Notes under the pieces: model-generated | What the model saw: the letters and a program-made list of their open reading frames with translations, nothing else | Told to the model about the DNA's origin: nothing | Database searches by the model: none | Program-made: the position numbers and the translations under genes | Shown: piece by piece, positions 5,638 through 26,584 of the stretch | Layout of the letters: every line of letters starts with the position of its first letter | Numbering within the stretch: the stretch's first letter is position 1 | Assembly (NCBI GenBank): GCA_964522905.1 | Contig: CAZFXH010000340.1 | Coordinates: 1-36,730, forward strand | Direction: 5' to 3' | Source: an uncultured Anaerolineaceae bacterium | GTDB lineage: Bacteria; Chloroflexota; Limnocylindria; Limnocylindrales; CSP1-4 | Length of the DNA: 36,730 nucleotides

Positions 5638-6162
5638 CTACGCCGTCGCCGGCTCGGTCGCCAGGCCCTCGACGACCTCGACGCGCGGCAACGCCAACAG
5701 GATCGACGGCGATGCGATCACCTTCCAGGACCTCGAGCCCCCGCCGAGCACGATGCGGTCCCGCGCCATCACGCGAGCATCGACCCACACCGGCAGCTCG
5801 GGCGGCAGGCCGAAGACGGTCACTCCACCGATCTCCATGCCGGTGATCTCGCGCGTGGACTCCGATGGCGCGAAGGACGCCTTGCGCGTCCCCAGCCGGT
5901 CGCGCACGGTCCGATTCACGTCCAGCCGGTTCGGGGCGAGCACGACGCATGCGGCATAGCGCGGTGGATCGCTCTTGCCGATGACAAGGATCGTGTTCGC
6001 CGAGTCCTCCGGAGCGAACCCGTAGGCGGCGCAGAACGCCGTCGTATCGGCGAGCGCCGGATCGCACGCGAAGAGCTCGTACTCGATATGGAGCGGCTCG
6101 AGGGCGGCGAACAGCCGCTCACGCCCGGCTGGATCGTGCGAGGGGTCGTGATCGGACGTCAC
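5638..6162 (-). CDS. YbaK/EbsC-type aminoacyl-tRNA deacylase domain protein
   Basis: Shows YbaK/ProRS-associated-domain-like sequence (ILVIGKSDPPRYAACVVLAPNRLDVN..VRDRLGTRKASFA...TGMEIGGVTVFGLP...VWVDARV...IVLGGGSRSWKV). The ORF reaches 6213, and a GTG at 6162 is an alternative start. Confidence 0.75.
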   Translation of the reverse strand: MTSDHDPSHDPAGRERLFAALEPLHIEYELFACDPALADTTAFCAAYGFAPEDSANTILVIGKSDPPRYAACVVLAPNRLDVNRTVRDRLGTRKASFAPSESTREITGMEIGGVTVFGLPPELPVWVDARVMARDRIVLGGGSRSWKVIASPSILLALPRVEVVEGLATEPATA

Positions 6163-7841: not shown

Positions 7842-9157
7842 AGCCGCGGCCGCGATCGTGCCGCCAGGCGGTCCTGCAGCCGGAACCACTCCCCGGCGAA
7901 CGGCAGGAACCACGGCCGGCCTTCGTAGGGAGCCGGCACCAGGGGAAACTTGAGGCGTGTCAACGCCGGAGATTCCCCGCCGGCCAGCCACTGCCCGACC
8001 CGCGACCCGAGGTGGGTCATCAACGCCACGCCCGTGCCGCAGCAGCCCATCGCGTACGCAACACCGTCCCCGGTCCGCCCCACGTGCGGCATCCGGTCGA
8101 AGGTGAAGCCGACGTTCCCGCCCCAGGCGTACTCGATCCGGTAGTCGGCCAGCTGCGGGTGGACCTCCAGGAGCCCGCGATGGAGGATCCGCGCCGTCTT
8201 CTCGATCGAGGTCGGGAAAAATGACGCGCGCCCGCCGAAGACCATCCGGCGGTCGGCCGAGACGTGCCAGTAGTACAGGAAGTTCTTCGTGTCGAAGAAG
8301 GCGCGGCCCTTGGGCGAGAGCTCGTGTGCGAGATCGTCGGGCAGCACCTCAGACGCGATGATGAACGAGCCGATCGGGATGATGCGGCGGCGCAGCGACG
8401 GGACGACGCCGTCCGTGTAGCCGTTGGTGGCCACGAAGACGTCCCCTGCCAGGATCTCGCCGCGCGATGTCTCGACCAGGAAACGGCCGTCCGCCTGCCG
8501 CCGGATCGACCGCGCACGAACCCCTTCGTGCAGGTCCGCGCCCGCGCGCGCCGCAGCCGCTGCCAGCCCCGCGAAGTACCGGCCGGGGTGAAGCAGGCCG
8601 CTGCCCTCGACCGCCAGCGCCCCGTAGTAGGCATCGGTGCCGATCTCCTCGCGGATCCGCTCGCGAGGCACGACGGTGGAGCTCACCCCGACCGAGGCCA
8701 GGCTCGCCCTCGCGTGCTCGAGCTCGGGAACGTGCGAGGGCGCATACGCGAGCTCGAGGTGGCCGCCCTCCCGGAAGTCGCAATCGATCGCCTCCTCGGC
8801 GATGAGTCGCTTCACGAGGTCGTACGAGTCGAGCGTCTCGCGGTAGAGGGCCTTGCCGGTCTCGTCGCCGTAGCGCTGGATCAGCTGCCGGGCGCTCCAT
8901 TTGTAGCCGGCATGCACGATACCGCCGTTACGCGTCGACGCCCCCCAGCCCAGCGTGTGCGTCTCCAGGAGCGTCACCGCGATCCCACGCCGGGCCAGCT
9001 CCCGGGCGGCGTTGATCCCCGCGTACCCGCCACCGATCACGACGACGTCCGCCGAGTCCGGGAGGTCGCGGCCGGACCGATCCGGTAGCGGCGTCATCGA
9101 GGCCTGCCAGAACGGCCGGCGCTCGTAGTCGGCGTTCAGGGAGCCTGGTGAACCCAT
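7838..9157 (-). CDS. FAD-dependent oxidoreductase (DAO / amine-oxidase-like family)
   Basis: Rossmann dinucleotide motif VVVIGGGYAGINAARELARRGIAVTLLE. C-terminal ...GCCGTGV.... The ORF extends to 9253, and the ATG at 9157 (MGSPGSLNADYERRPFWQ) is the likely start. Its stop overlaps the stop of the convergent decarboxylase within the tetranucleotide CTAG. Confidence 0.85.
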   Translation of the reverse strand: MGSPGSLNADYERRPFWQASMTPLPDRSGRDLPDSADVVVIGGGYAGINAARELARRGIAVTLLETHTLGWGASTRNGGIVHAGYKWSARQLIQRYGDETGKALYRETLDSYDLVKRLIAEEAIDCDFREGGHLELAYAPSHVPELEHARASLASVGVSSTVVPRERIREEIGTDAYYGALAVEGSGLLHPGRYFAGLAAAAARAGADLHEGVRARSIRRQADGRFLVETSRGEILAGDVFVATNGYTDGVVPSLRRRIIPIGSFIIASEVLPDDLAHELSPKGRAFFDTKNFLYYWHVSADRRMVFGGRASFFPTSIEKTARILHRGLLEVHPQLADYRIEYAWGGNVGFTFDRMPHVGRTGDGVAYAMGCCGTGVALMTHLGSRVGQWLAGGESPALTRLKFPLVPAPYEGRPWFLPFAGEWFRLQDRLAARSRPRL

Positions 9158-9339
9158 GAGGTGGAGCGTACCGGAGCGCCGCCTCGCGCGCCCCATCCCA
9201 GTTCCCGCCAAGGTTCCCATCGGACTCTCGGGCGACCGAGCGACGAGCCCCATATCAAGCGTCGTCGGTTACGATCGCCAGGGAGTGCCGGCGGATCGGC
9301 GTCTCCTGCCAGGCCTACGGTCCATCGCTTGGGGGACGC

Positions 9340-10146
9340 GTGCGCACGATCGCGGTCATCAATCGCAAAGGAGGCAGTGGCAAGACGACGACGGCCGTCA
9401 ACACGGCCGCCGCGTTGGCCGGCTTCGGACGCTCGGTCCTTTTGATCGACGTCGATCCGCAGGGCAGCGCGTCGGACTGGCTCGACCGCGAGGGGTCCGA
9501 TCGGGGACTGCGCGAAGCGTTCACCGTGACGGGCGACCTCGCTCGGCTGGCCGTCCCTACCGACACGGCGAGGCTCCAGATCGTGCCCTCGACGCATTGG
9601 CTCGTCGTCGCCGAGAAGACGATGCTGGGCGATCTCAGCGTGGGCATCTCGCGGGCCCTCCAGCGGTTGCCACCTCGCTGGGATCTCGTCATCGTCGACT
9701 GTCCGCCCTCGCTGTCGTACCTTTCGATCGGGGTGCTGATGGGCGTCCGGGAGCTGATCATCCCGGTGGAAGCTCACTCGATGGCACTCAGCGGCGCTGT
9801 CGCCGTGATCGATGAGTTGCCGGCTGTGCGATCGTTGAATCCGAGCCTCGCAGAAATCTGCCTCCTGCCATGTCGCGTGACCCGGACACGCCACGCTCGG
9901 GCGGTCATCGAGTCCCTCGAGGCCGACTATCCGGCCGAGGTCTCGAACACCCGCATCCGCGAGAGCATCAAGCTCGCGGAGGCCGCCGAAGCGCGACAAC
10001 CCATCACGGCCTTCGCACCCGACGGTGTCGGCACCAGCGACTACCGGGGCTTCGCCCGGGAGCTGCTCCAGCGTGCTCCGCTCGCCGCCCCAGCCAAGGC
10101 GCCCTGGAGGCGGTCCCCAGTTTCGTTGCTGTCGAGAGATCGATGA
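9340..10146 (+). CDS. ParA/Soj/MinD-family P-loop ATPase (orphan ParA-like)
   Basis: Deviant Walker A INRKGGSGKTTTAVN. Also LLIDVDPQGSAS and Walker B-like DLVIVDCPPS. GTG start at 9340. Its stop overlaps the downstream ATG (ATGA at 10143-10146). Confidence 0.9.
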   Translation: MRTIAVINRKGGSGKTTTAVNTAAALAGFGRSVLLIDVDPQGSASDWLDREGSDRGLREAFTVTGDLARLAVPTDTARLQIVPSTHWLVVAEKTMLGDLSVGISRALQRLPPRWDLVIVDCPPSLSYLSIGVLMGVRELIIPVEAHSMALSGAVAVIDELPAVRSLNPSLAEICLLPCRVTRTRHARAVIESLEADYPAEVSNTRIRESIKLAEAAEARQPITAFAPDGVGTSDYRGFARELLQRAPLAAPAKAPWRRSPVSLLSRDR

Positions 10147-10856
10147 CCGAGCCTCGGCCTGAACCTGCCGCGACTGCAGCTGCTGTGGAGGCGCTGGTTC
10201 GATCGATCGAGGCCAAGGAGGCTCAGGACGCTCGCCCCGGCGCGGGCGTGGAGCCGACAGCGCGCCGAGCAGGCGATGCCGAGATGCCCGCCCCTGCCGT
10301 CGTCCTCGAACCGACGCCGCGGAAGCAGGATGAGCTGACCCGCTCCTCCGACCCACCGACCTCCAGAACTCGCCGGCCCGCGGCCACCGGCTGGGCATGG
10401 TCCTCCACCAGCCGCGGACCCCTCCCTGGTCTCGTCGATCGCCAACTGTGGGAGGCGCTCGTCGCCGAAGAGGCTGAGCGTCAACACCGGTACGGGCGAC
10501 CCACCGCCGTCGTCCTGGCCGAGCTGGACGGCCTCGATGCCCTGGTCGCGCGGATGGGCCCAGCGGCCATACACCGGCTGGTGCTTCCCTGCGTCGAGAT
10601 GCTCGCGTCGCTCACGCGCAGGTCCGACCGCATGACGCGGCTGACCAACTCGCGATTTGGCCTCCTCCTGCTCGAGACCGACGCTAGCGGGGCGGCCATG
10701 CTCGCTGCAAGGATCACAGTAGCCGCCGAGAAGCGGCTGTCCGGAAGTACGTGGCCGGTGCGGCTGATGGTCGGCTGGGCTGGTGCCTCGACCAGCGAGG
10801 ATCTCCGCCACGCGGTCCGCGCCGCCGACAGACACCTCCGCACGAGGCGCGACTGA
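10143..10856 (+). CDS. Protein with a disordered N-terminal ~100 aa and a degenerate (inactive) GGDEF-like domain
   Basis: The ATG at 10143 overlaps the ParA stop. The listed ORF start at 9870 lies inside parA in another frame. The C-terminal ~130 aa align to a diguanylate-cyclase fold: RYGRPTAVVLAELDGLDALVARMGPAAIHRLVLPCVEMLASLTRRSDRMTRLTNSRFGLLLLETD...VGWAG...ADRHL. TNSRF occupies the GG(D/E)EF position. RRSD sits exactly 5 residues upstream, at the RxxD I-site position. Confidence 0.7.
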   Translation: MTEPRPEPAATAAAVEALVRSIEAKEAQDARPGAGVEPTARRAGDAEMPAPAVVLEPTPRKQDELTRSSDPPTSRTRRPAATGWAWSSTSRGPLPGLVDRQLWEALVAEEAERQHRYGRPTAVVLAELDGLDALVARMGPAAIHRLVLPCVEMLASLTRRSDRMTRLTNSRFGLLLLETDASGAAMLAARITVAAEKRLSGSTWPVRLMVGWAGASTSEDLRHAVRAADRHLRTRRD

Positions 10857-10919
10857 ACGCACTGATCGAGCAGCGAGACGCGTCCAGGCCAGATTGCTGC
10901 CCGCCCGCGGAGCCTCCGA

Positions 10920-11147
10920 CTACGGTCGCGTGCTATTGGGGTCAGCGGAAGCCGGGAGGAACCAGTCAGGCTCCGGTGGGATGACCCGATCGGCCGTCTC
11001 GCCGTTGACGACCGCGAGATGCGTGAAGAACCGGGCGCGCCGATGCGAGACGATCCGCGCGTCCTGGCAGGGGCAGCCGTGCGCGAGGCAGCCCGACGGC
11101 CGTGAGGGACCTGCTCCTGACCTTTGCCTCGTATCGCTGACGTCCAT
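10920..11147 (-). CDS. Small (75 aa) Cys-containing hypothetical protein
   Basis: The ATG at 11147 is preceded by AGGAGA. G/C3 bias is genome-like from codon ~18 onward. Sequence ...GCLAHGCPCQDARIVSHRRARFFTHLAVVNGETADRVIPPEPDWF.... The upstream part of the listed 234-aa ORF overlaps the sigma-factor gene antisense and is discounted. Confidence 0.4.
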   Translation of the reverse strand: MDVSDTRQRSGAGPSRPSGCLAHGCPCQDARIVSHRRARFFTHLAVVNGETADRVIPPEPDWFLPASADPNSTRP

Positions 11148-11457
11148 GTCCTGTCTCCTGCGCCGAGTCTGGGCTCGACCCCGGATGCCCCGGATGAAAT
11201 GTGGTCCCCTCTGGATACGTTCGGTGACGCTGCGAGGACGCATTTCGTTGCATCCGCGAGCCAAGGTGTCGGCTGGCCGACGTCCAGCAAGCGGGCCGGG
11301 TTGGCGGGCAGACTGAACCTCGCGCTGTCCGCCGGCATCAAGTGGTCGAACGCGCGGTTCCTGGAGGCAGCCGATCCCACCCGCGACCGACCGGTCGCTC
11401 GTCGACCGGGCCCGCCACGGCGACCTCGACGCGTTCGAGGAGATCGTTCGCGCCCGA

Positions 11458-11925
11458 ATGGATGCCGTGTACCGCCTCTCATTCGCGATCCTCGCCGACG
11501 AGGCGGACGCCCGCGACGCCGCCCAGGACACCTTCGTGACCGCGTGGCGGCAGATCGGGAAGCTCCGCGACCCCGAGCGCTTCGACGCGTGGCTCCAGCG
11601 CGTGGCCGTCAATGCCGCCCGCATGACCCATCGGGCGCGCCGGCGCCGGGGCGTTCGCGAGATCGCGGCCAGCCGCGTCGGCGGTGCGGCCGACTTGCCC
11701 GCGACGGCGTCGCCCGTGGAAGCCGATGCTGGGACGCTTCAGACGGCGCTTGGCCGCCTGTCGATCGAGCAGCGATCCATCCTCGCGCTGCACCATCTCG
11801 AGGGCTATCCCGTGGCCGATCTCGCGGCGATCCTCGACGTCCCGATCGGGACCGTGAAGTCGCGTCTGCACACGGCCCGTCAGGCGCTCCAAGCGGCGAT
11901 CGATGCCGAAGGACGTGCCCGTTGA
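11458..11925 (+). CDS. ECF-type RNA polymerase sigma-70 factor; coordinates run from the first canonical start and the protein probably begins further upstream
   Basis: Region 2 DAAQDTFVTAWRQIGKLRDPERFDAWLQRVAVNAA. Region 4 LSIEQRSILALHHLEGYPVADLAAILDVPIGTVKSRLHTARQAL. The same frame upstream encodes the expected N-terminus (DRSLVDRARHGDLDAFEEIVRAR) but has no ATG/GTG/TTG back to the TGA at 11314. GGAGG-N6-ATC lies at 11363-11376. Confidence 0.85.
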   Translation: MDAVYRLSFAILADEADARDAAQDTFVTAWRQIGKLRDPERFDAWLQRVAVNAARMTHRARRRRGVREIAASRVGGAADLPATASPVEADAGTLQTALGRLSIEQRSILALHHLEGYPVADLAAILDVPIGTVKSRLHTARQALQAAIDAEGRAR

Positions 11926-13463
11926 GTCCTCTAGACGAGCCAGACCGCTGGGGAGACGACCGACTCGGGATGGCGTTCGCAGCGCTCGCGAATGCCCAGC
12001 CCGTGCCGACGGACATGACTCGCCGAGTCGTCGCCGGCATCAGGGCCGGCTCACATGGCCGGATGGCCGCGGGTTGGCATCGATTCGCCCCGGTCTTGAC
12101 CACCGCAACGATCGTGGGCGTGTTCGTGATCGGCCTCGCCATGCTGGGCCCGCTCCGAACCGGTCGCGGACTCCCGGAATCGACGGACGTACCACCTTCC
12201 GCCGGGCCAAGCACCGATCGAACGCCGATGTCGTCGGCGACGCTTCCGTCCAGCATCATGGGCATGCCGATCATCGGGGTAGGTGACGCGATCGCGGCCC
12301 GCGACAACGGCGTCAACGATCGGGAACTCGCCGTTCGCGGCTGGTTCTCCCCGATCGGTCCGATGCCCTGCCCGTACACGCCAGCGATGTCCCCGGTGCA
12401 GCCGGTGTGCCCGGATGCCTGGACCGTGCTCATGGAGGAGCCCCAGTCGCTGGTCACCGTCGTCCGGGACGGGTTCGAGGGCCGCGACCCGAGCGGCCCG
12501 TCGTTCCAGATCGACCTCGACGACCTCGATCGAACCTGGGCGCCAGATCTTCCGGCAGTCGGACCCGCCATGCCGATCGAACTCGTGGTCGTCGGCCACT
12601 TCGACGACCGACGGTCATTCGCCTGCCCAGGCGAGGTGGACCTTTGTCGCGATCGGTTCGTCGTCGATCGCGTCGCCTTTGCCGATGGTAGGCCGGTGCC
12701 GACGAGCGCGCTCGATCTTGTCGATGGCGGCGCTGTATCGACGGCGGCAGAGGTGGCGGCGACGGTCAGCGAAACCGTCCGAGGCGCAGAGTTCCTGTCG
12801 ATGGTTGCGGTCGATGGCGAGCTCGGGCTGCAACGGGTCGAGCCGTCGATCGGTGTGTTCGCTCGACTGCAGGGTCAGCGGGCGATATGGGTCGTCCGGC
12901 TCCTCGACCGCTGCGTCATCCGATGCACGGCCCGCGCGGGGGCTGGCGAGTTCGGCACGTACCTCCTGGTCGATGGCACCGATACGCTTTTCAAGATCGA
13001 CGCCGACAACGTGGCGACCCAGGTGGTCGGCACGCTCCCTGTCGCGTCGCCAGTTCCGTGGCCGCCCGACGGCGCGACGGTCATCGTCCTGCGGAGTCCG
13101 GTCGGAGAGGGCCGACCGCAGCCACGCGTCGCCGTCGTCGACCTGAGCGGCCGACTGACCTCCGCGCGCGAGGTTCGGGACTCGGATCCGCCGGTCACCA
13201 TCGTCGAGGAAGGTGATCGAGCCGGTTTCGCCCGTGATCGGGAAGGAGCCTACCGGTTGCGCTGGGCCGGCGGCATCTGCGACGGTGATCTGACGGTGAC
13301 GATCGCAGCCGATCTTCGCGGGATCGTCGTCGACGGCGGGCAACAGGTCGCCTGCGATGCCATGGGGATCGGCCGCGAGCTCGTGCTCAAGTTCTCCCAG
13401 CAGGTCGATCCAGCCGATGTCGACGTCATGTACACCGAGACCCGAGTCCCGGATCCCGACTGA
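11922..13463 (+). CDS. Membrane-anchored protein coupled to the ECF sigma (putative non-ZAS anti-sigma or sensor) with a large extracytoplasmic domain
   Basis: A TTG at 11922 overlaps the sigma stop (TTGA). An alternative ATG gives MAFAAL.... A short cytoplasmic segment is followed by one TM helix (VLTTATIVGVFVIGLAMLG) and then ~430 aa with paired cysteines (PCPYTPAMSPVQPVCPD and GHFDDRRSFACPGEVDLCRDRFVVDRV). The 5' 800 nt of the listed 779-aa ORF overlap other genes and are discounted. Confidence 0.7.
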   Translation: MSPLDEPDRWGDDRLGMAFAALANAQPVPTDMTRRVVAGIRAGSHGRMAAGWHRFAPVLTTATIVGVFVIGLAMLGPLRTGRGLPESTDVPPSAGPSTDRTPMSSATLPSSIMGMPIIGVGDAIAARDNGVNDRELAVRGWFSPIGPMPCPYTPAMSPVQPVCPDAWTVLMEEPQSLVTVVRDGFEGRDPSGPSFQIDLDDLDRTWAPDLPAVGPAMPIELVVVGHFDDRRSFACPGEVDLCRDRFVVDRVAFADGRPVPTSALDLVDGGAVSTAAEVAATVSETVRGAEFLSMVAVDGELGLQRVEPSIGVFARLQGQRAIWVVRLLDRCVIRCTARAGAGEFGTYLLVDGTDTLFKIDADNVATQVVGTLPVASPVPWPPDGATVIVLRSPVGEGRPQPRVAVVDLSGRLTSAREVRDSDPPVTIVEEGDRAGFARDREGAYRLRWAGGICDGDLTVTIAADLRGIVVDGGQQVACDAMGIGRELVLKFSQQVDPADVDVMYTETRVPDPD

Positions 13464-13466
13464 CGT

Positions 13467-14848
13467 TCAGTCTATCGGCGCCTCGTACGCGACCCGACCG
13501 TCGGCCATCGTCAGCAAGACCCGGCCCGGAAGGTCCATCCCGAGCAGCGGCGAATTCTTGCCGCGGGACGCGAGCGCCTCCGCCGAGACGGTCCAGCGCT
13601 CCGACCGATCGAACACGACGAGGTCCGCCGGCGCCCCTTCGACGAGGCCTACCGAGCCGTTGCGACGCGCCCGTGGGCCAAGCACCGCGGCCGGACCGAC
13701 GGTTAAGGCCGCGAGCGCCCGCGCCAGAGTCAGATGGCCCGAGTCGACCGCCTCGAGCACGAGCCCGAGCGCCGTCTCGATGCCGCTGATCCCGTTCGCG
13801 GCCATGCCGAACTCGACCGCCTTGTCGACCTCCGTGTGGGGTGCGTGGTCCGTCGCGATCGCGTCGGCCGTGCCGTCGGCAAGGGCGGCCAGGCAGGCCA
13901 TGACGTCGGCCGGTGTCCGGAGCGGCGGGTTCACGCGAAGCGATGACGCGTACGGCGCCGCCACCAATGCCCCGTCCCGCCACGGATCACCGTCCTCGCC
14001 GGCCTCCCACGCGAAACGGCGAGCGCCCGCGACCCACTCGTCGGTCAGTGCGAGGTGATGTGGCGTCACGTCGCAGGTGACGGGCAGGCCAGCCGCCTTG
14101 GCGCGGCGCACGAGCTCCAATGCCGCCGCCGTGGATACATGGGTCAGATGCAGTCGCGCTCCCGGGACGTCCCGCACGACGTCGGCGAGGATCGCCAGGT
14201 CCCGACCGACCGCCGCCTCCTCCGCTGCGACCGGCCACCCGCGCAGTCCCAGGACGGTCGCGACGAACCCGTCGTTCGCCTCGGCGCCGTCGGTGAGGGT
14301 CGCATCCTCGGGGTGGTCCACGATCGGCAGCCCGAGCGCGCCCGCGTAGGCGAGCGCGTTGCGCAGGATCGATGCGGAGCGGACCGGCGCACCGTCGTCG
14401 GAGAACCCCACGACGCCTGCGTCCGCGAGCTCGCCGAGTGCTGCGAGCGTCTCGCCGGCCCGTCCGGTCGACACCGCCCCGTAAGCCAGCAGCTCCACGG
14501 GCGAACCGGAGGCTGCAGCCGCCGCCCGGATCCCGGACAGCACGGCAGGTTCGTCGAGCGTCGGCGTCGTGTTCGGCATCGCGCAGACGGTCGTGAAGCC
14601 GCCGCGGGCGGCCGCCGCGAGTCCCGACGCCACGGTCTCGGCATCCTCGTTGCCGGGTTCGCGCAGGTGGATATGGAGATCGATGAACCCGGGCGCCACG
14701 ACGACACCACCAGCGTCGATGCCGTCGGCCTCCTCGCGTTCGAGCCATGTCACGGCCTCGAGGATCCCGTCCCGGACGACGATCTCACCGGGCCCTTCGC
14801 GCCCCGCGGCCGGATCCACCATCCAGGCGCGCCCGATGTCGAGGTCGG

Positions 14849-14852
<4 letters not shown>
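13467..14852 (-). CDS. pyrC: Dihydroorotase
   Basis: Metal-binding motif PGFIDLHIHLREPG. Also ...TCDVTPHHL... and ...IATDHAPH.... The ATG overlaps the pyrB stop (ATGA). Confidence 0.9.
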
Positions 14853-16615
<1,763 letters not shown>

Positions 16616-22420: not shown

Positions 22421-25400
22421 ATGGAAACTCGCCCTGTTTCGCATGGCTCGGGAAACGTCCGAAATCCTCCGTTGCGAGCGACGGACCGCCTAGAATGCGG
22501 CATCGTGGGGACGCAGTCGGCCACCGAATCGCAGCTAGTCGTCATCGGTTCCTCGGCCGGTGGCATCGAGGCGCTGTCGAGCGTGGTCGGCCGTCTTCCC
22601 CCCGATTTCCCGGCACCGGTGGTCATCGCCCAGCACCTGGATCCCCGCCGCCCGAGTCACCTCGGCGAGATCCTGTCCCGGCACGCCACCCTGCCGATCA
22701 AGGTCGTCGAGGACCGCGCGTCGCTCGAGGGCGGGGTCATCTACGTCGTCCCGTCGAACCGCCTGGTCGAGATCGTCGGCGGCGAGCTGCGTCTTCGACC
22801 TGCCAAACGCGGCAGCGTTGCGCCGTCGGTGGATCTGCTCCTCGAGACGGCGGCCGCCGCGTTCGGATCCGGGCTCGTGGCGGTCATCCTCACGGGGTCC
22901 GGCAGTGACGGATCAGCCGGGGCGTGGCACGTCAAACAGGCTGGTGGCACTGTCGTCGTCGAAAATCCGGCCACGGCCCTCTTCCCGTCGATGCCCGGCT
23001 CGATCTCGCCATCACTCGTCGACGAAACGGCCGATCTCGAATCGATCGCAGACGTCGTCAGCGGGCTCCTCGCATCCGGCGGGGTGGCCCCGAAGGGACG
23101 CGAGGGCCGCGACCTCGCGGCCGTGCTCGACCGGATCCGGGAGCGGAGCGGCATCGATTTCAGTACGTACAAGACCGCCACGATCATCCGCCGGCTGCGC
23201 GGCCGGATGGTGGCGACCAGGCAGACGTCGCTCTCGGACTACGCCGAGTTGGTGGAGAACGACCGCGATGAATACACCAGGCTCGTCAGCAGCCTCTTGA
23301 TCAAGGTGACCGAGTTCTTCCGCGATCCGAAGGTGTTCCAGCACCTCCGCGAGGAGACGCTCCCAGCGCTCATCGAGGAGGCGTTGGCCGACGGCCGCCA
23401 GCTTCGGGTCTGGTCGGCCGGCTGCTCCACCGGGGAGGAGGCGTATTCCCTCGCGATCGTCCTGGCGGAGGCGCTGGGTCCCGAGCGGCTCGCCGTTGAC
23501 GTGCGTGTGTTCGCGACCGATCTCGACAGTGCCGCCATCGCGTTCGCCCGACGTGGCGTATATCCGGCGTCCGCGCTGCAGAAGGTGCCGCCGGATATCC
23601 GGGATCGCTATTGCGTGAGATCCGACGGCGGATACGAGGTCGCGAAATCGATCCGGTCCATGATGACCTTCGGCGAGCACGACCTCGGAGCGCGTGCGCC
23701 GTTCCCCCGTATCGACCTCATCCTGTGCCGGAACGTCCTCATCTACTTCACCGTGCCGATGCAGCGCGCGGCGCTCGAGACATTCGGGTTCTCGCTGCGC
23801 GACGGTGGCCGGCTCGTGTTGGGGCCCTCCGAGACCGTGGCCGCGATGCCGGGTCTGTTCGTCGAGGATCAGGCCCGGCTGCGGATCTACCGCCGCGCCC
23901 ACGGAAAGACGAAGTTGCCGCTCGCCCAGGTCAAACCGCCACGACCGCCGCGCGAGCGCGAGCCCCATCTCCACGCTGCGATCCGGTCAACCCGGCGGGA
24001 CGTCCAGGTCTCGGCCGACTCGACCGAAGCGGCCGAGAAGCTGCTGATCGATCTGGGCCTCGGTATCGTCGTCGTCGATAGCCGCTACTACATCGTCCGG
24101 ATCAACACGGCGGCTCGCCGCATGCTCGGGATCCACGGCCTGGCATTCGACCAGGATTTCGTCCACCTCGCCGAGTCCCTGCCATCGACCGCGATCCGGA
24201 CCGCGATCGATGCCGCCCTCCGCGGGAGGACCACGACGTCCGTGTTCGAAGTCGAAGCGACCGACGTATCCGCGAAGGGACCCCGATACATCGAGACGGT
24301 GGTCCGCCCGGACACCAAGGCCGGCACCGTCGACGGCGTGGTCATCGAGCTGACGGACGTCAGCCGAGCCGAGCAGGAGCGCCGTGCAGGCGTCCAGGCC
24401 GAGCGCCGGCTGGATCGCGCGACGCTCGTCAACCGGCGGTTGCAGCAGGCCAATGAAGAGCTGACAGCCCTGGTGGCGGAGCTTCGGAACAGCAACCAAT
24501 CCATGCTCCAGGCGAGCGAAGAGGCCCAGTCGGGGCGCGAAGAGGTCGAGACCCTCAACGAGGAATTCCAGGCGACGAACGAGGAGCTGGAAACGCTCAA
24601 CGAGGAGCTGACGGCGAGCGTCGAGGAATTGCGCATCGCCAATGAGGACCTCGGTGCGCGAACCGAGGAGCTCCGCCTGCAATCGGTCGCCCTCGAGGAG
24701 CAGAAGCAGCACCGGGAGGAGGAGCACAGCCGCCTCGAATCGGTCCTCGCGAGCCTGGGCGATGCCGTGGTGGCCGTGGATCATGCCGGCCGCACCGTCG
24801 CCACCAACCCGGCCTACGACAGGCTGTTTGGCGGACCCGAAGCCAAGATCCGGCCCGAGGATCTCGCCGGGCTTCCGTTGCCGAAGGCCGATTGGCCGCA
24901 GCAGCGCGCCGCCCGAGGCGAGCGGTTCCGGATGGAGTTCGCCCTGAGCGACCCCGACGGTTCGCGGCGCTGGTTCGAGGCGGTGACCGAACCGCTCACC
25001 AGCGAGGACCGGACGTGGGGCGGGGTCATCGCCATCCGGGACGTGTCCGAGCGCACGATGCGCCTGAGCCTGGAGCGGCTCATGGCGGCCGCCGGGCACG
25101 AGTTGAAAACGCCCACGGCCGCGCTCCACAACTACCTGCAGCTCGTGGACCGGAACCTTGCCGCCGGCGACGTCGACAAGGCCGCGACCTACGCGGCCCG
25201 GGCCCTCGCCCAGACGCGTCGAATGGGCACCCTCATCGAGCGCCTCCTCGACGTGAGCCGGATCCAGACCGGTCGGCTCGAGTTGCTCGTCGAGGTCGTC
25301 GATCTCGCGGCGGTCGTCCGATCGGCCGTGGAGGTCGCCCAGGTCCTGCCCAAGGCTCCACCGATCCGCGTGAAAGCCGGAGCCAAGCCTGTCTACGTTC

Positions 25401-25780
25401 GTGCGGACCCGGGCCGCCTCGAGCAGGTCTTCCTCAACCTGCTGGCGAACGCCATGGACCATGCGCCCGAGTCGGAGACGATCGAGGTCACGGTCAAGCA
25501 GTCGGATGCGCAAGCGGTGGTGGCCGTCCGCGATCACGGGCCGGGGATGTCGGGCGAGGAGATCCGCACGATGTTCGACGCCTACACGCGGCTGGGACAT
25601 CCGCATCGAGCGCCTGGTCTGGGTCTTGGCCTCTACGTCGCCCGCGAGATCGTGACGGCCCACCAGGGCGAGATCGAGGCCACGTCGCGGGTCGGCAAGG
25701 GTTTGGTCATGACCGTGCGGCTGCCGGTGGCGGCTCGCCCGAGTCCACGCAGCCGAGGTCGGCGGCCCAGCGTCGGCTGA
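22421..25780 (+). CDS. CheB methylesterase - CheR methyltransferase - PAS - coiled coil - PAS - HisKA/HATPase fusion sensor kinase (cytoplasmic)
   Basis: CheB-like: VVIGSSAGGIEAL, VVIAQHLDP, TGSGSDGSAG. CheR-like: GIDFSTYKTATIIRRLRGRM, RVWSAGCSTGEEAYSLAI, LILCRNVLIYF. Heptad-rich region: ETLNEEFQATNEELETLNEELTASVEELRIANEDL. H-box: AAAGHELKTPTAAL. N/G boxes: LLANAMDHAP, DHGPGM, GLGLGLYVAREIV. No TM segment. An alternative in-frame GTG start lies at 22505. Confidence 0.9.
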   Translation: METRPVSHGSGNVRNPPLRATDRLECGIVGTQSATESQLVVIGSSAGGIEALSSVVGRLPPDFPAPVVIAQHLDPRRPSHLGEILSRHATLPIKVVEDRASLEGGVIYVVPSNRLVEIVGGELRLRPAKRGSVAPSVDLLLETAAAAFGSGLVAVILTGSGSDGSAGAWHVKQAGGTVVVENPATALFPSMPGSISPSLVDETADLESIADVVSGLLASGGVAPKGREGRDLAAVLDRIRERSGIDFSTYKTATIIRRLRGRMVATRQTSLSDYAELVENDRDEYTRLVSSLLIKVTEFFRDPKVFQHLREETLPALIEEALADGRQLRVWSAGCSTGEEAYSLAIVLAEALGPERLAVDVRVFATDLDSAAIAFARRGVYPASALQKVPPDIRDRYCVRSDGGYEVAKSIRSMMTFGEHDLGARAPFPRIDLILCRNVLIYFTVPMQRAALETFGFSLRDGGRLVLGPSETVAAMPGLFVEDQARLRIYRRAHGKTKLPLAQVKPPRPPREREPHLHAAIRSTRRDVQVSADSTEAAEKLLIDLGLGIVVVDSRYYIVRINTAARRMLGIHGLAFDQDFVHLAESLPSTAIRTAIDAALRGRTTTSVFEVEATDVSAKGPRYIETVVRPDTKAGTVDGVVIELTDVSRAEQERRAGVQAERRLDRATLVNRRLQQANEELTALVAELRNSNQSMLQASEEAQSGREEVETLNEEFQATNEELETLNEELTASVEELRIANEDLGARTEELRLQSVALEEQKQHREEEHSRLESVLASLGDAVVAVDHAGRTVATNPAYDRLFGGPEAKIRPEDLAGLPLPKADWPQQRAARGERFRMEFALSDPDGSRRWFEAVTEPLTSEDRTWGGVIAIRDVSERTMRLSLERLMAAAGHELKTPTAALHNYLQLVDRNLAAGDVDKAATYAARALAQTRRMGTLIERLLDVSRIQTGRLELLVEVVDLAAVVRSAVEVAQVLPKAPPIRVKAGAKPVYVRADPGRLEQVFLNLLANAMDHAPESETIEVTVKQSDAQAVVAVRDHGPGMSGEEIRTMFDAYTRLGHPHRAPGLGLGLYVAREIVTAHQGEIEATSRVGKGLVMTVRLPVAARPSPRSRGRRPSVG

Positions 25781-25954: not shown

Positions 25955-26584
25955 GTGGTTGACCGGGTGCCGGCCGTGATTCGCGTCGCGATCGTCGAGG
26001 ACCACCCCGCCATCGCCGACGGACTCGCCGCCCTGATCCAGGAATCGCCCGAGGTGACCGTCGTCGGCACGGCCCGCGATGTGCCGTCGGCGAGCACGCT
26101 CATCGAGCACGAGTCCCCGGACATCGTCCTGTGCGATATCCGCCTCGCGGAAGACGGCGACGGCTTCGAGCTGATCCGGAGGCACCGCCCCGGGCCCGCC
26201 TTCATCATCCTGAGCGCGTACTGGTACCCGAGTTATCACGTGCGGGCGGTAGAGCTGGGGGCGAAGGGGTATCTCTCGAAGATGGCCACGGTCGAGCAGA
26301 TCCTCGGCGCCGTGAAGGCCGTTGCGGCGGGCGGGACCGTCTTCCCGGCGGCCGCTCGACAGGCCGCCAGCGATGCGCTCCGGGTGCCGACCCCGCGAGA
26401 GCTCGAGATCATCGCGCTCGTTACCGAGGGGCTGTCGAACGCCGAGATCGCGGAGCGGCTGTCGTTGCGGGTCAAGACGGTCGAGAGCCAGTTGCGGCGC
26501 CTGTTTGACCGGTACGACGTTGCGAGCCGGACGGCGCTCGTGCGACTGGCAAGTCGGCAGGGCTGGAACGAGGAGGGCCGCTGA
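25955..26584 (+). CDS. NarL/LuxR-family response regulator (REC + HTH)
   Basis: REC: IRVAIVEDHP, phospho-acceptor context DIVLCDIRL, IILSAY, AKGYLSK. HTH: LTPRELEIIALVTEGLSNAEIAERLSLRVKTVESQLRRLFDRYDV. In-frame GTGs occur at 25955, 25967 and 25976; 25976 (VIRVAIVEDH) fits the family best. Confidence 0.9.
   Translation: MVDRVPAVIRVAIVEDHPAIADGLAALIQESPEVTVVGTARDVPSASTLIEHESPDIVLCDIRLAEDGDGFELIRRHRPGPAFIILSAYWYPSYHVRAVELGAKGYLSKMATVEQILGAVKAVAAGGTVFPAAARQAASDALRVPTPRELEIIALVTEGLSNAEIAERLSLRVKTVESQLRRLFDRYDVASRTALVRLASRQGWNEEGR

Follow-up and report, generated by a model that had tools for sequence, protein, structure and literature searches.

We identified a conserved two-gene unit at positions 9340–10856 of a contig (CAZFXH010000340.1) from an uncultured bacterium of the class Limnocylindria (Chloroflexota). 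The whole stretch analysed, 36,730 nucleotides (nt) with a G+C content of about 70%, is called the window below. The first open reading frame (ORF), parA (9340–10146, plus strand), has a GTG start and encodes a Soj-type ParA ATPase of 268 amino acids. The second (10143–10856, plus strand) has an ATG start and encodes a protein of 237 amino acids, called the partner here, in which a conserved helix and a disordered linker precede a catalytically dead GGDEF domain. The start codon of the partner overlaps the TGA stop of parA in the sequence ATGA (10143–10146, plus strand), an arrangement of translational coupling. The original prediction for this locus, made by reading the sequence without database searches, had described a ParA/MinD-type ATPase with the motif KGGSGKTT that ends in an ATGA shared with a 237-residue protein, and both reading frames were confirmed. 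The pair is probably an undescribed link between signalling by cyclic di-GMP (c-di-GMP), a second messenger, and a ParA-type ATPase.

The two genes form a self-contained, translationally coupled operon that is found in Candidatus Limnocylindria (Chloroflexota). Conservation of the pair in relatives had been named as a check. All 18 loci examined carry it intact (the window, L001–L005, L025, L031 and L041–L050), and they represent at least nine unrelated flanking contexts; the junction is a four-nucleotide overlap or a small gap in all of them. Ten loci, the window and nine syntenic relatives, carry the pair between a gene for a flavin adenine dinucleotide (FAD)-dependent oxidoreductase and pyrC-pyrB-pyrR, and the remaining eight loci are in eight different neighbourhoods. 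The same four-nucleotide overlap is present in L041, L042 and L044, and a gap of four nucleotides is present in L045–L047 and L050. Insertions 3' of the pair (a toxin-antitoxin pair, an extracytoplasmic function (ECF) sigma/anti-sigma pair and a thymidine kinase gene) never fall between the two genes.

To collect relatives, one genome from each GTDB species was scanned, and 40 loci that code for proteins related to the partner were obtained. In seven of these the gene directly upstream is a ParA ortholog, and three further diverged partners (41–46% identity), reached by contig look-ups, show the same ParA-partner arrangement. The reverse test started from seven ParA homologs (53–68% identity) picked solely for their location on long contigs, and a dead-GGDEF gene comes next in every case (7/7). 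The dead-GGDEF gene of L049 had been missed by the gene caller and was recovered through tblastn and translation. All sources that name an organism are Candidatus Limnocylindria, Limnocylindrales or unclassified Chloroflexota. An exhaustive profile search returned about 290 representatives of the dead-GGDEF group (clusters at 50% identity, E≤1e-30); generic GGDEF proteins numbered 26,434 at E≤1e-10.

Within the syntenic loci the flanking genes are 87–98% identical, ParA is 77–82% identical and the partner is 53–71% identical. The partner ORF has a G+C content of 0.79 at third codon positions (GC3) against 0.60 at second positions (GC2), and its homologs span 81–26% identity. Both ORFs are under purifying selection.

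The first gene product matches the Pfam families AAA_31 (E=3.3e-33) and CbiA (E=1.4e-17). Profile searches of both proteins had also been named as a check, and they confirm the AAA_31/CbiA call for ParA as well as the GGDEF call for the partner. ParA has the deviant Walker A motif KGGSGKTT (K10–T17, nt 9367–9390, plus strand) and a Walker B motif, VDCPP, that can be read at residues 119–123. Not one of 64 orthologs departs from K10, G11, G12, K15, T16, T17, D37, D39 or D120, and the protein is therefore selected as an ATPase. By these motifs ParA is enzymatically intact.

The closest sequence match of ParA in the PDB is Soj of T. thermophilus (1wcv, E=1.5e-31, full length). An AlphaFold2 model built with the 64 orthologs has a mean predicted local distance difference test score (pLDDT) of 87.8. 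Foldseek aligns it with Soj/ParA structures, including T. thermophilus Soj and ParA 8ray, at template modelling (TM) scores of 0.89–0.92 and 31–37% identity. McdA, MinD, FlhG/FleN and BcsQ are clearly more distant (TM 0.74–0.83, 16–22% identity); BcsQ alone gives a TM score of 0.75 and 16–18% identity. None of the equivalog models that we scored reaches its cut-off: ParA obtains 105.2 of 180 bits with the NCBIfam model ParA_partition (NF041546), 28.8 of 212.9 bits with MinD (TIGR01968), 47.2 of 157.85 bits with BcsQ (TIGR03371), and 38 of 108 bits with the tyrosine-autokinase model TIGR01007. A partial match to PF06564 scores 26.7 bits. Residue R182 aligns with the arginine of the sequence 'DGRT' in T. 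thermophilus Soj and is kept in at least 90% of orthologs. We take this residue to correspond to R189 of B. subtilis Soj, which is presumably required for non-specific DNA binding.

ParA extends past the Soj core by about 25 residues (245–268, nt 10072–10143, plus strand) and ends in a family-specific basic and aromatic motif, here APWRRSPVSLLSR. Across 119 orthologs the motif is seen in the classes SWW(R/K)SP, to which the window subgroup belongs, SRWRRLFTR, RRWFGRWR and GWLRQLVSR, and such tails were noted in the orthologs P0091–P0210. Residues 252–268 are predicted by AlphaFold2 to be disordered. The hydrophobic moment of the tail is not above that of shuffled controls (458 of 2000 shuffles in the case of a relative, 1732 of 2000 in that of the window), and with this test not significant a MinD-like amphipathic membrane helix in the tail is a weak possibility. 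The tail sequence LQRAPLAAPAKAPWRRSPVSLLSRDR has no tyrosine, and there is no C-terminal tyrosine cluster. We also considered a role in anti-phage defence, which was rejected on a negative PADLOC scan: ParA gave P-loop-level matches only (E about 1e-4), and the partner gave none.

The partner scores 36.1 bits with the Pfam GGDEF model, whose gathering cut-off is 23.8 (E=7.2e-9, residues 94–234), as expected from the earlier claim that its C-terminal part has a diguanylate-cyclase fold. No other Pfam family is matched at E≤1, and the protein hence has no GIL and no GAF domain. An AlphaFold2 model was built with 79 relatives. The model begins with a conserved amphipathic helix, AAAVEALVRSIEAKEAQD (residues 12–29, nt 10176–10229, plus strand; pLDDT 81–87), in which A12 and E16 are each conserved in 57 of 79 sequences, A17 in 61 and L18 in 62. 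A disordered linker follows (residues 31–91, nt 10233–10415, plus strand), with pLDDT below 50 over residues 31–85 and 87–91; it is made up of 15% each of R, P and A and 11% T, and both its length and its sequence vary among orthologs. Residues 1–93 as a whole are 19% Ala, 14% Pro, 12% Arg and 10% Thr. The original prediction had described the first 100 or so residues as low-complexity, which holds for the linker and fails for residues 12–29. Residues 94–237 (nt 10422–10853, plus strand) form a GGDEF fold, modelled at pLDDT above 90 over residues 95–237. Foldseek aligns this domain at TM scores of 0.74–0.78 with active cyclase domains, DosC, 3ign, a T. maritima protein, WspR and PleD (2wb4) being among the matches, and the fold is therefore complete, unlike the dead GGDEF domains of BcsE and PelD, which are truncated (PMC7439463).

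The active-site positions of this otherwise complete domain have been lost. A phmmer alignment with PDB entry 3ign, a GGDEF domain crystallised with c-di-GMP, is free of gaps and places RRSD on RQSD, TNSRF on GGEEF, and ELDGLDALVA on FDIDHFKPVND. The replacement of both catalytic segments, as originally proposed, is thus borne out, and the cyclase site is dead. Positions in the partner equal PleD positions minus 200, a correspondence of our own that draws on residue numbers in a review (PMC7288161) and on the 3ign alignment. On this numbering, GGEEF 368–372 of PleD has become TNSRF 168–172 (nt 10644–10658, plus strand), the metal ligand D327 has become E127, and the guanine-binding residues N335 and D344 have become V135 and H144. 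Across the 79 members of the family, G368 is Gly in 14, G369 is Gly in eight, E370 is Glu in none, and E371 is Arg in 70. From these substitutions we conclude that the partner is unable to make c-di-GMP.

The inhibitory site (I-site) of PleD consists of R359, D362 and R390 together with R313 from the neighbouring domain (PMC7288161). The RxxD motif of this site is present in the partner as RRSD (R159–D162, nt 10617–10628, plus strand). It coincides with RQSD of the c-di-GMP-bound structure 3ign and lies upstream of the signature position by exactly five residues, so that the I-site register claimed for it earlier is exact. R190 (nt 10710–10712, plus strand) is equivalent to the third I-site residue, R390 in PleD and R402 in PelD, and R113 (nt 10479–10481, plus strand) is equivalent to PleD R313, the arginine that acts in trans. 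R159 and D162 are each invariant (79/79), and are two of just six invariant columns in an alignment of 79 sequences that reach down to 26% identity and have a mean column identity of 21%. R113 and R190 are each Arg in 78 of the 79, and at the position of R190 an Arg is found in 41 of 43 locus-encoded relatives. In the same 79 sequences the catalytic positions are lost or drift freely while the I-site is held. Judging from this alignment, the I-site is under strong selection.

The partner is most likely a c-di-GMP receptor. This role had been put forward in the original prediction on the RxxD motif, and it is strengthened because the third and fourth I-site arginines are kept as well while the catalytic positions drift. 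PelD provides an experimental parallel, in which the RxxD motif and the third arginine are needed for c-di-GMP binding (PMC7112168). The fact that the trans-acting arginine R113 is kept as well hints at a ligand able to link one copy of the partner to another.

The architecture of the N-terminal part varies among ParA-coupled partners. In those of L025, L031, L045–L047, L049 and L050, an N-terminal transmembrane helix is followed by an Arg cluster, a helix with the AAAIEAFV motif, a linker and finally the dead GGDEF domain, which would thus be cytoplasmic and tethered to the membrane. Partners of the window subgroup and of L048 have no transmembrane helix and are soluble. A neighbour-joining tree places all ParA-coupled partners together, with the soluble and the membrane-anchored forms as sister groups. 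The soluble partner of the window is probably derived by loss of the membrane anchor, and the usual presence of an anchor in the diverged partners points to a membrane-linked role rather than to a free cargo.

Separate from the ParA-coupled cluster is a larger group of stand-alone, membrane-anchored dead-GGDEF paralogs (L006–L037 and L040 among the loci, leaving aside the coupled L025 and L031), which have no ParA gene within 6 kb. These occupy a conserved chromosomal spot (about position 6000 of each locus) beside xanthine-dehydrogenase-like and amidohydrolase genes on the opposite strand. They share the I-site and the helix motif with the coupled partners, and in one metagenome-assembled genome a coupled soluble copy (L004) occurs together with one that stands alone and is membrane-anchored (L026). 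The helix motif A-V/I-E-A-L/F thus occurs in paralogs that have no ParA nearby, and it also occurs in cyclase fusions. Two such fusions, P0248 (697 amino acids) and P0264 (660 amino acids), combine a multi-pass membrane domain, an intact RYGGDEF cyclase with an RxxD motif of its own, the helix (ESLLxG) and the dead GGDEF domain. An intact GAF-GGEEF cyclase (signature RYGGEEF, I-site RGDD) is also encoded at positions 1–1530 of L050, 3.5 kb upstream of the pair. The intact cyclases in the fusions and near the L050 pair imply that c-di-GMP is made in this lineage, and they link the unit to c-di-GMP signalling.

No natural fusion of ParA with a GGDEF domain was found among the proteins searched. 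The candidate P0028 (360 amino acids) joins the C-terminal part of ParA, an out-of-frame linker and a dead GGDEF domain, and looks like a frameshifted metagenome gene call. The long proteins P0374, P0250 and P0266, which were also considered as ParA fusions, instead have membrane or linker extensions.

The nearest known parallel is the BcsQ-BcsE pair of cellulose secretion systems of the E. coli type. The dead GGDEF domain of BcsE binds c-di-GMP through an RxxD I-site and directly binds the MinD/ParA-type ATPase BcsQ (PMC7439463). A dead GGDEF domain can thus itself be the surface that binds an ATPase, because BcsE provides an example (PMC7439463). Both pairs consist of a ParA/MinD-type (SIMIBI) ATPase and a dead-GGDEF protein with an I-site, and the BcsQ-BcsE complex is associated with the membrane (PMC7439463; PDB 6ybb). 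The dead GGDEF domain of BcsE has lost helix alpha-1 as well as its P-loop and is preceded by an N-terminal and a REC-like domain, whereas the domain described here has a complete fold and lies behind a helix and a linker. The genes bcsQ and bcsE are in separate operons, whereas parA and the partner gene overlap. No bcs genes, including those for BcsR and BcsF, lie near the pair, and the window has no cellulose genes. By analogy the pair would work most like BcsQ-BcsE; however, it belongs to neither family, because it falls short of the BcsQ cut-off and has neither a GIL domain nor a bcs context. The original prediction knew of no ParA-cargo system built on a degenerate GGDEF protein. This statement has to be tempered by the partial precedent of BcsQ-BcsE, which has a different architecture and serves cellulose secretion specifically.

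Inactive GGDEF proteins that act as receptors through RxxD and a third arginine are also known in PelD of P. aeruginosa and B. cereus and in PopA of Caulobacter (PMC7112168). PelD is membrane-anchored, as are the diverged relatives of the partner (PMC7112168). However, PelD has four transmembrane helices and a GAF domain and is encoded in pel operons, and two receiver domains are found in PopA. A ParA-type ATPase accompanies neither of the two, and the partner is minimal in comparison, with only a helix, a linker and the dead GGDEF domain. A further parallel is FleN (FlhG) with FleQ in Pseudomonas, where a MinD/ParA-type ATPase is complexed with a c-di-GMP-binding partner, so that here too the second messenger acts on a pair of ATPase and partner (PDB 8pb9, 8p53 and 7ejw; PMC3424551). 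FleQ differs in being an AAA+ enhancer-binding transcription factor whose AAA+ domain is the site of c-di-GMP binding, and it has no GGDEF fold. FleN is MinD/FlhG-like (TM about 0.75) rather than Soj-like.

The gene order recalls the Soj/ParA-ParB (Spo0J) partition systems of chromosomes and plasmids, which likewise have a Soj-type deviant Walker A ATPase and a partner gene directly downstream in the order parA-parB. We take the layout of an N-terminal helix followed by a disordered region to resemble the ParA-stimulating N-terminal peptides of ParB, McdB and ParP. The resemblance to these adaptors is limited, however, in that the conserved helix of the partner is not specific to the ParA-coupled members. 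The partner also differs from ParB in having no helix-turn-helix, no CTPase box and no parS, and has instead the fold of a second-messenger receptor. As stated in the original prediction, no ParB, helix-turn-helix gene or parS array adjoins the pair; we found no ParB box, no canonical parS within three mismatches and no repeat array in the 36.7-kb window.

On balance, we lean towards the reading that this coupled operon of the Limnocylindria encodes an intact Soj-type ParA and a dead-GGDEF c-di-GMP receptor that work together, and hold it with a confidence a little above even. In the mechanism that we propose, intercalated dimers of c-di-GMP would bind to R159, D162 and R190 in one dead GGDEF domain and to R113 in another. 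The ligand would in this way cross-link two copies of the partner, just as it links GGDEF domains of PleD in product inhibition. The resulting two-fold symmetric partner dimer would engage the ATP-bound dimer of ParA, and would either alter the ATPase cycle of ParA or be recruited and organised by it. A change in the level of the second messenger would thereby lead to a change in the state or location of ParA. A more specific form of this proposal is tentative and, in our view, rather doubtful: the dead-GGDEF receptor may replace ParB, McdB or MinE as the cognate partner of a Soj-type ParA, with c-di-GMP-induced dimerisation gating the ATPase cycle and hence patterning on the nucleoid or the membrane. 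If so, the partner would represent a ParA partner of a new class, and c-di-GMP would have a new output route in an uncultured class of Chloroflexota.

Several points weigh against the cooperation of the two proteins in a c-di-GMP response. We infer c-di-GMP binding by the partner from sequence only, and physical contact between ParA and the partner is likewise inferred. No column of the dead GGDEF domain is conserved in the ParA-coupled group yet divergent in the stand-alone paralogs. The conserved N-terminal helix is common to stand-alone paralogs that have no neighbouring ParA. The flanking genes are mostly housekeeping genes and uninformative on the output of the pair. The N-terminal tail had been proposed as the element that contacts and stimulates ParA, a role for which we found no specific support, given that the helix recurs in ParA-less paralogs and in cyclase fusions. 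A ParA-specific interface on the dead GGDEF domain was also considered, and it was rejected since every conserved surface residue is common to the stand-alone paralogs.

Two of the contexts in relatives contain genes of potential interest for the output. Positions 1–10816 of L048 hold the pair on the same strand within an exopolysaccharide-type cluster that comprises two beta-helix/NosD proteins, two GT4 transferases, a Polysacc_deac_1 protein, an SDR epimerase and a Bac_transf priming transferase. The gene content of L048 loosely recalls Pel-type loci. Positions 8741–10135 of L046 include ftsZ two genes 3' of the pair, after a gene for a tetratricopeptide repeat (TPR)/helix-turn-helix protein, and this arrangement is found in one context only. 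The L048 cluster and the L046 ftsZ gene were each seen once, and therefore neither fixes the function.

These contexts bear on two other explanations of the pair. It may be a module for the assembly or regulation of exopolysaccharide, similar to BcsQ-BcsE or PelD, in which the ATPase is an assembly factor of a polysaccharide machine in the membrane and the partner its membrane-anchored c-di-GMP sensor, with no nucleoid positioning involved. The position of the L048 pair inside a polysaccharide cluster on the same strand agrees with this, as do the membrane anchor that is usual in diverged partners and the weak matches of ParA to the models of BcsQ and the polysaccharide tyrosine autokinases. 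Moreover, PelD and BcsE both serve polysaccharide machines as dead-GGDEF I-site receptors, and the latter has a MinD/ParA-type ATPase as its binding partner. However, a polysaccharide cluster occurs in just one of at least nine contexts, and the pair in the window and nine relatives has the FAD oxidoreductase gene on one side and pyrC on the other. The ATPase clearly resembles Soj (TM 0.9) and not BcsQ (TM 0.75, with TIGR03371 below its cut-off), the partner lacks GAF and GIL domains, and the ParA tail lacks a tyrosine cluster, and we regard a role in exopolysaccharide production as unlikely. It is also quite unlikely that this ParA is an ATPase of chromosome segregation or division-site placement, similar to Soj, MipZ or PldP, for which the partner is a c-di-GMP-dependent modulator and the primary partner, for example ParB, is encoded elsewhere. 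The nearest neighbours of ParA in sequence and structure are indeed chromosomal Soj/ParA proteins, R182 aligns with the Soj arginine of presumed DNA-binding function in at least 90% of orthologs, and ftsZ is two genes downstream in L046. Against this, ftsZ is close in that single context, the window has neither ParB nor parS, and the neighbourhood is not of the origin type, with genes of pyrimidine biosynthesis and other metabolic genes flanking the locus. Housekeeping Soj, furthermore, has neither the family-specific C-terminal tail nor an obligate dead-GGDEF neighbour.

The partner might alternatively be a ParA partner or adaptor that has ceased to bind any nucleotide, with the RxxD motif and the arginines serving a structural role or a protein contact, or one that binds another ligand such as (p)ppGpp. 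PDB entry 9g85 of 2025, which contains PleD with c-di-GMP and ppGpp, makes other guanine-nucleotide ligands conceivable. This explanation is nevertheless improbable in view of four dispersed c-di-GMP-site residues that are conserved in 78 or 79 of 79 sequences against a mean column identity of 21%, the matching triad of RxxD and third arginine that is experimentally required in PelD, and the fusion of members of the group to active cyclases. That the two genes are adjacent by chance or through an artefact of gene calling, and do not cooperate, is hardly credible. It is contradicted because the pair is syntenic in 18 of 18 loci in at least nine contexts, and further by the four-nucleotide overlap or small gap and by the purifying selection on both ORFs.

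ATPases of the ParA/MinD type organise chromosomes, plasmids, carboxysomes, chemoreceptor arrays, flagella and division sites, and it is the partner protein that defines each system. c-di-GMP is the main second messenger of lifestyle decisions in bacteria, and the Limnocylindria are an abundant, uncultured lineage of soil and freshwater. What is new in the pair is the class of partner for a Soj-type ParA and the setting for an I-site receptor; the pairing of a dead GGDEF domain with an ATPase is partly known from BcsQ-BcsE. A full-text literature search returned no report of an operon that obligately combines a Soj-type ParA with an I-site-only GGDEF receptor, nothing on an orphan ParA with GGDEF, and nothing on Limnocylindria with c-di-GMP; the BcsE paper alone joined ParA, MinD and a degenerate GGDEF domain. 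If our reading of the pair as a cooperating ATPase and c-di-GMP receptor is true, it would provide a compact two-protein system in which to study the gating of a ParA-type ATPase by a second messenger. The ParA repertoire would gain a further class of partner, and c-di-GMP signalling in the Limnocylindria would have a first functional handle.

Upstream of parA, the sole strongly conserved stretch among nine aligned orthologous regions is GGTACGATCG. This block lies about 65–75 nucleotides 5' of the parA start and is at the same position in L001, L002, L003, L005, L041, L043 and L044. Its representative in the window, GTCGGTTACGATCG (9264–9277, plus strand), holds the -10-like sequence TACGAT (9270–9275) and is a probable promoter of the two-gene operon. 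A generic sigma-70 promoter scan and a terminator scan of the locus gave no match. A Shine-Dalgarno-like GGGGGA can be read at 9331–9336 (plus strand), three nucleotides 5' of the GTG start, and GGGG(G/A) is kept ahead of parA in the upstream-region alignment of orthologs. The membrane-anchored-type pairs of L025, L031 and L046 have a different upstream block in common, GCACCGGAC...GGTGTA(G/C)CCTGCG. A search for RNA elements near the pair found only tRNAs and no c-di-GMP riboswitch. Small ORFs 5' of parA in L025, L046 and L047 are mutually unrelated and have no Pfam match; a hidden third gene upstream of parA was rejected on the grounds that these ORFs are not conserved.

The neighbours of the pair in the window include genes for pyrimidine biosynthesis, a pyridoxal phosphate (PLP)-dependent decarboxylase, ECF sigma factors, a phosphoketolase and an acetate kinase. 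The pyrimidine genes are split around the locus, with a phosphoribosyltransferase and a dihydroorotate dehydrogenase at 939–2904 and a dihydroorotase, an aspartate carbamoyltransferase and a PyrR-like protein at 13467–16524. Positions 11458–13463 are a variable insertion that consists of an ECF sigma factor gene (11458–11925) and an ORF of about 510 amino acids, a putative anti-sigma factor with no Pfam match. This insertion 3' of the pair is present in the window, L002, L043 and L044, and absent in L001, L003–L005 and L041. The roughly 600 nucleotides between the stop codon of the partner and the sigma factor gene (10857–11457) contain no convincing gene, and relatives, L041 for example, lack this spacer. 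A possible ORF of 75 amino acids on the minus strand (10920–11147) has no Pfam match. Farther downstream, the window encodes a fusion protein of 1119 amino acids (22421–25780) that combines a CheB methylesterase, a CheR methyltransferase, PAS, HisKA and HATPase domains, and a gene for a LuxR-type response regulator (25955–26584) lies 3' of it. In three of the non-syntenic contexts, tRNA genes adjoin the pair (L045, 4780–4853; L025, 6483–6555; L031, 6970–7042), and these neighbouring tRNA genes may bear on the relocation of the pair between genomes.

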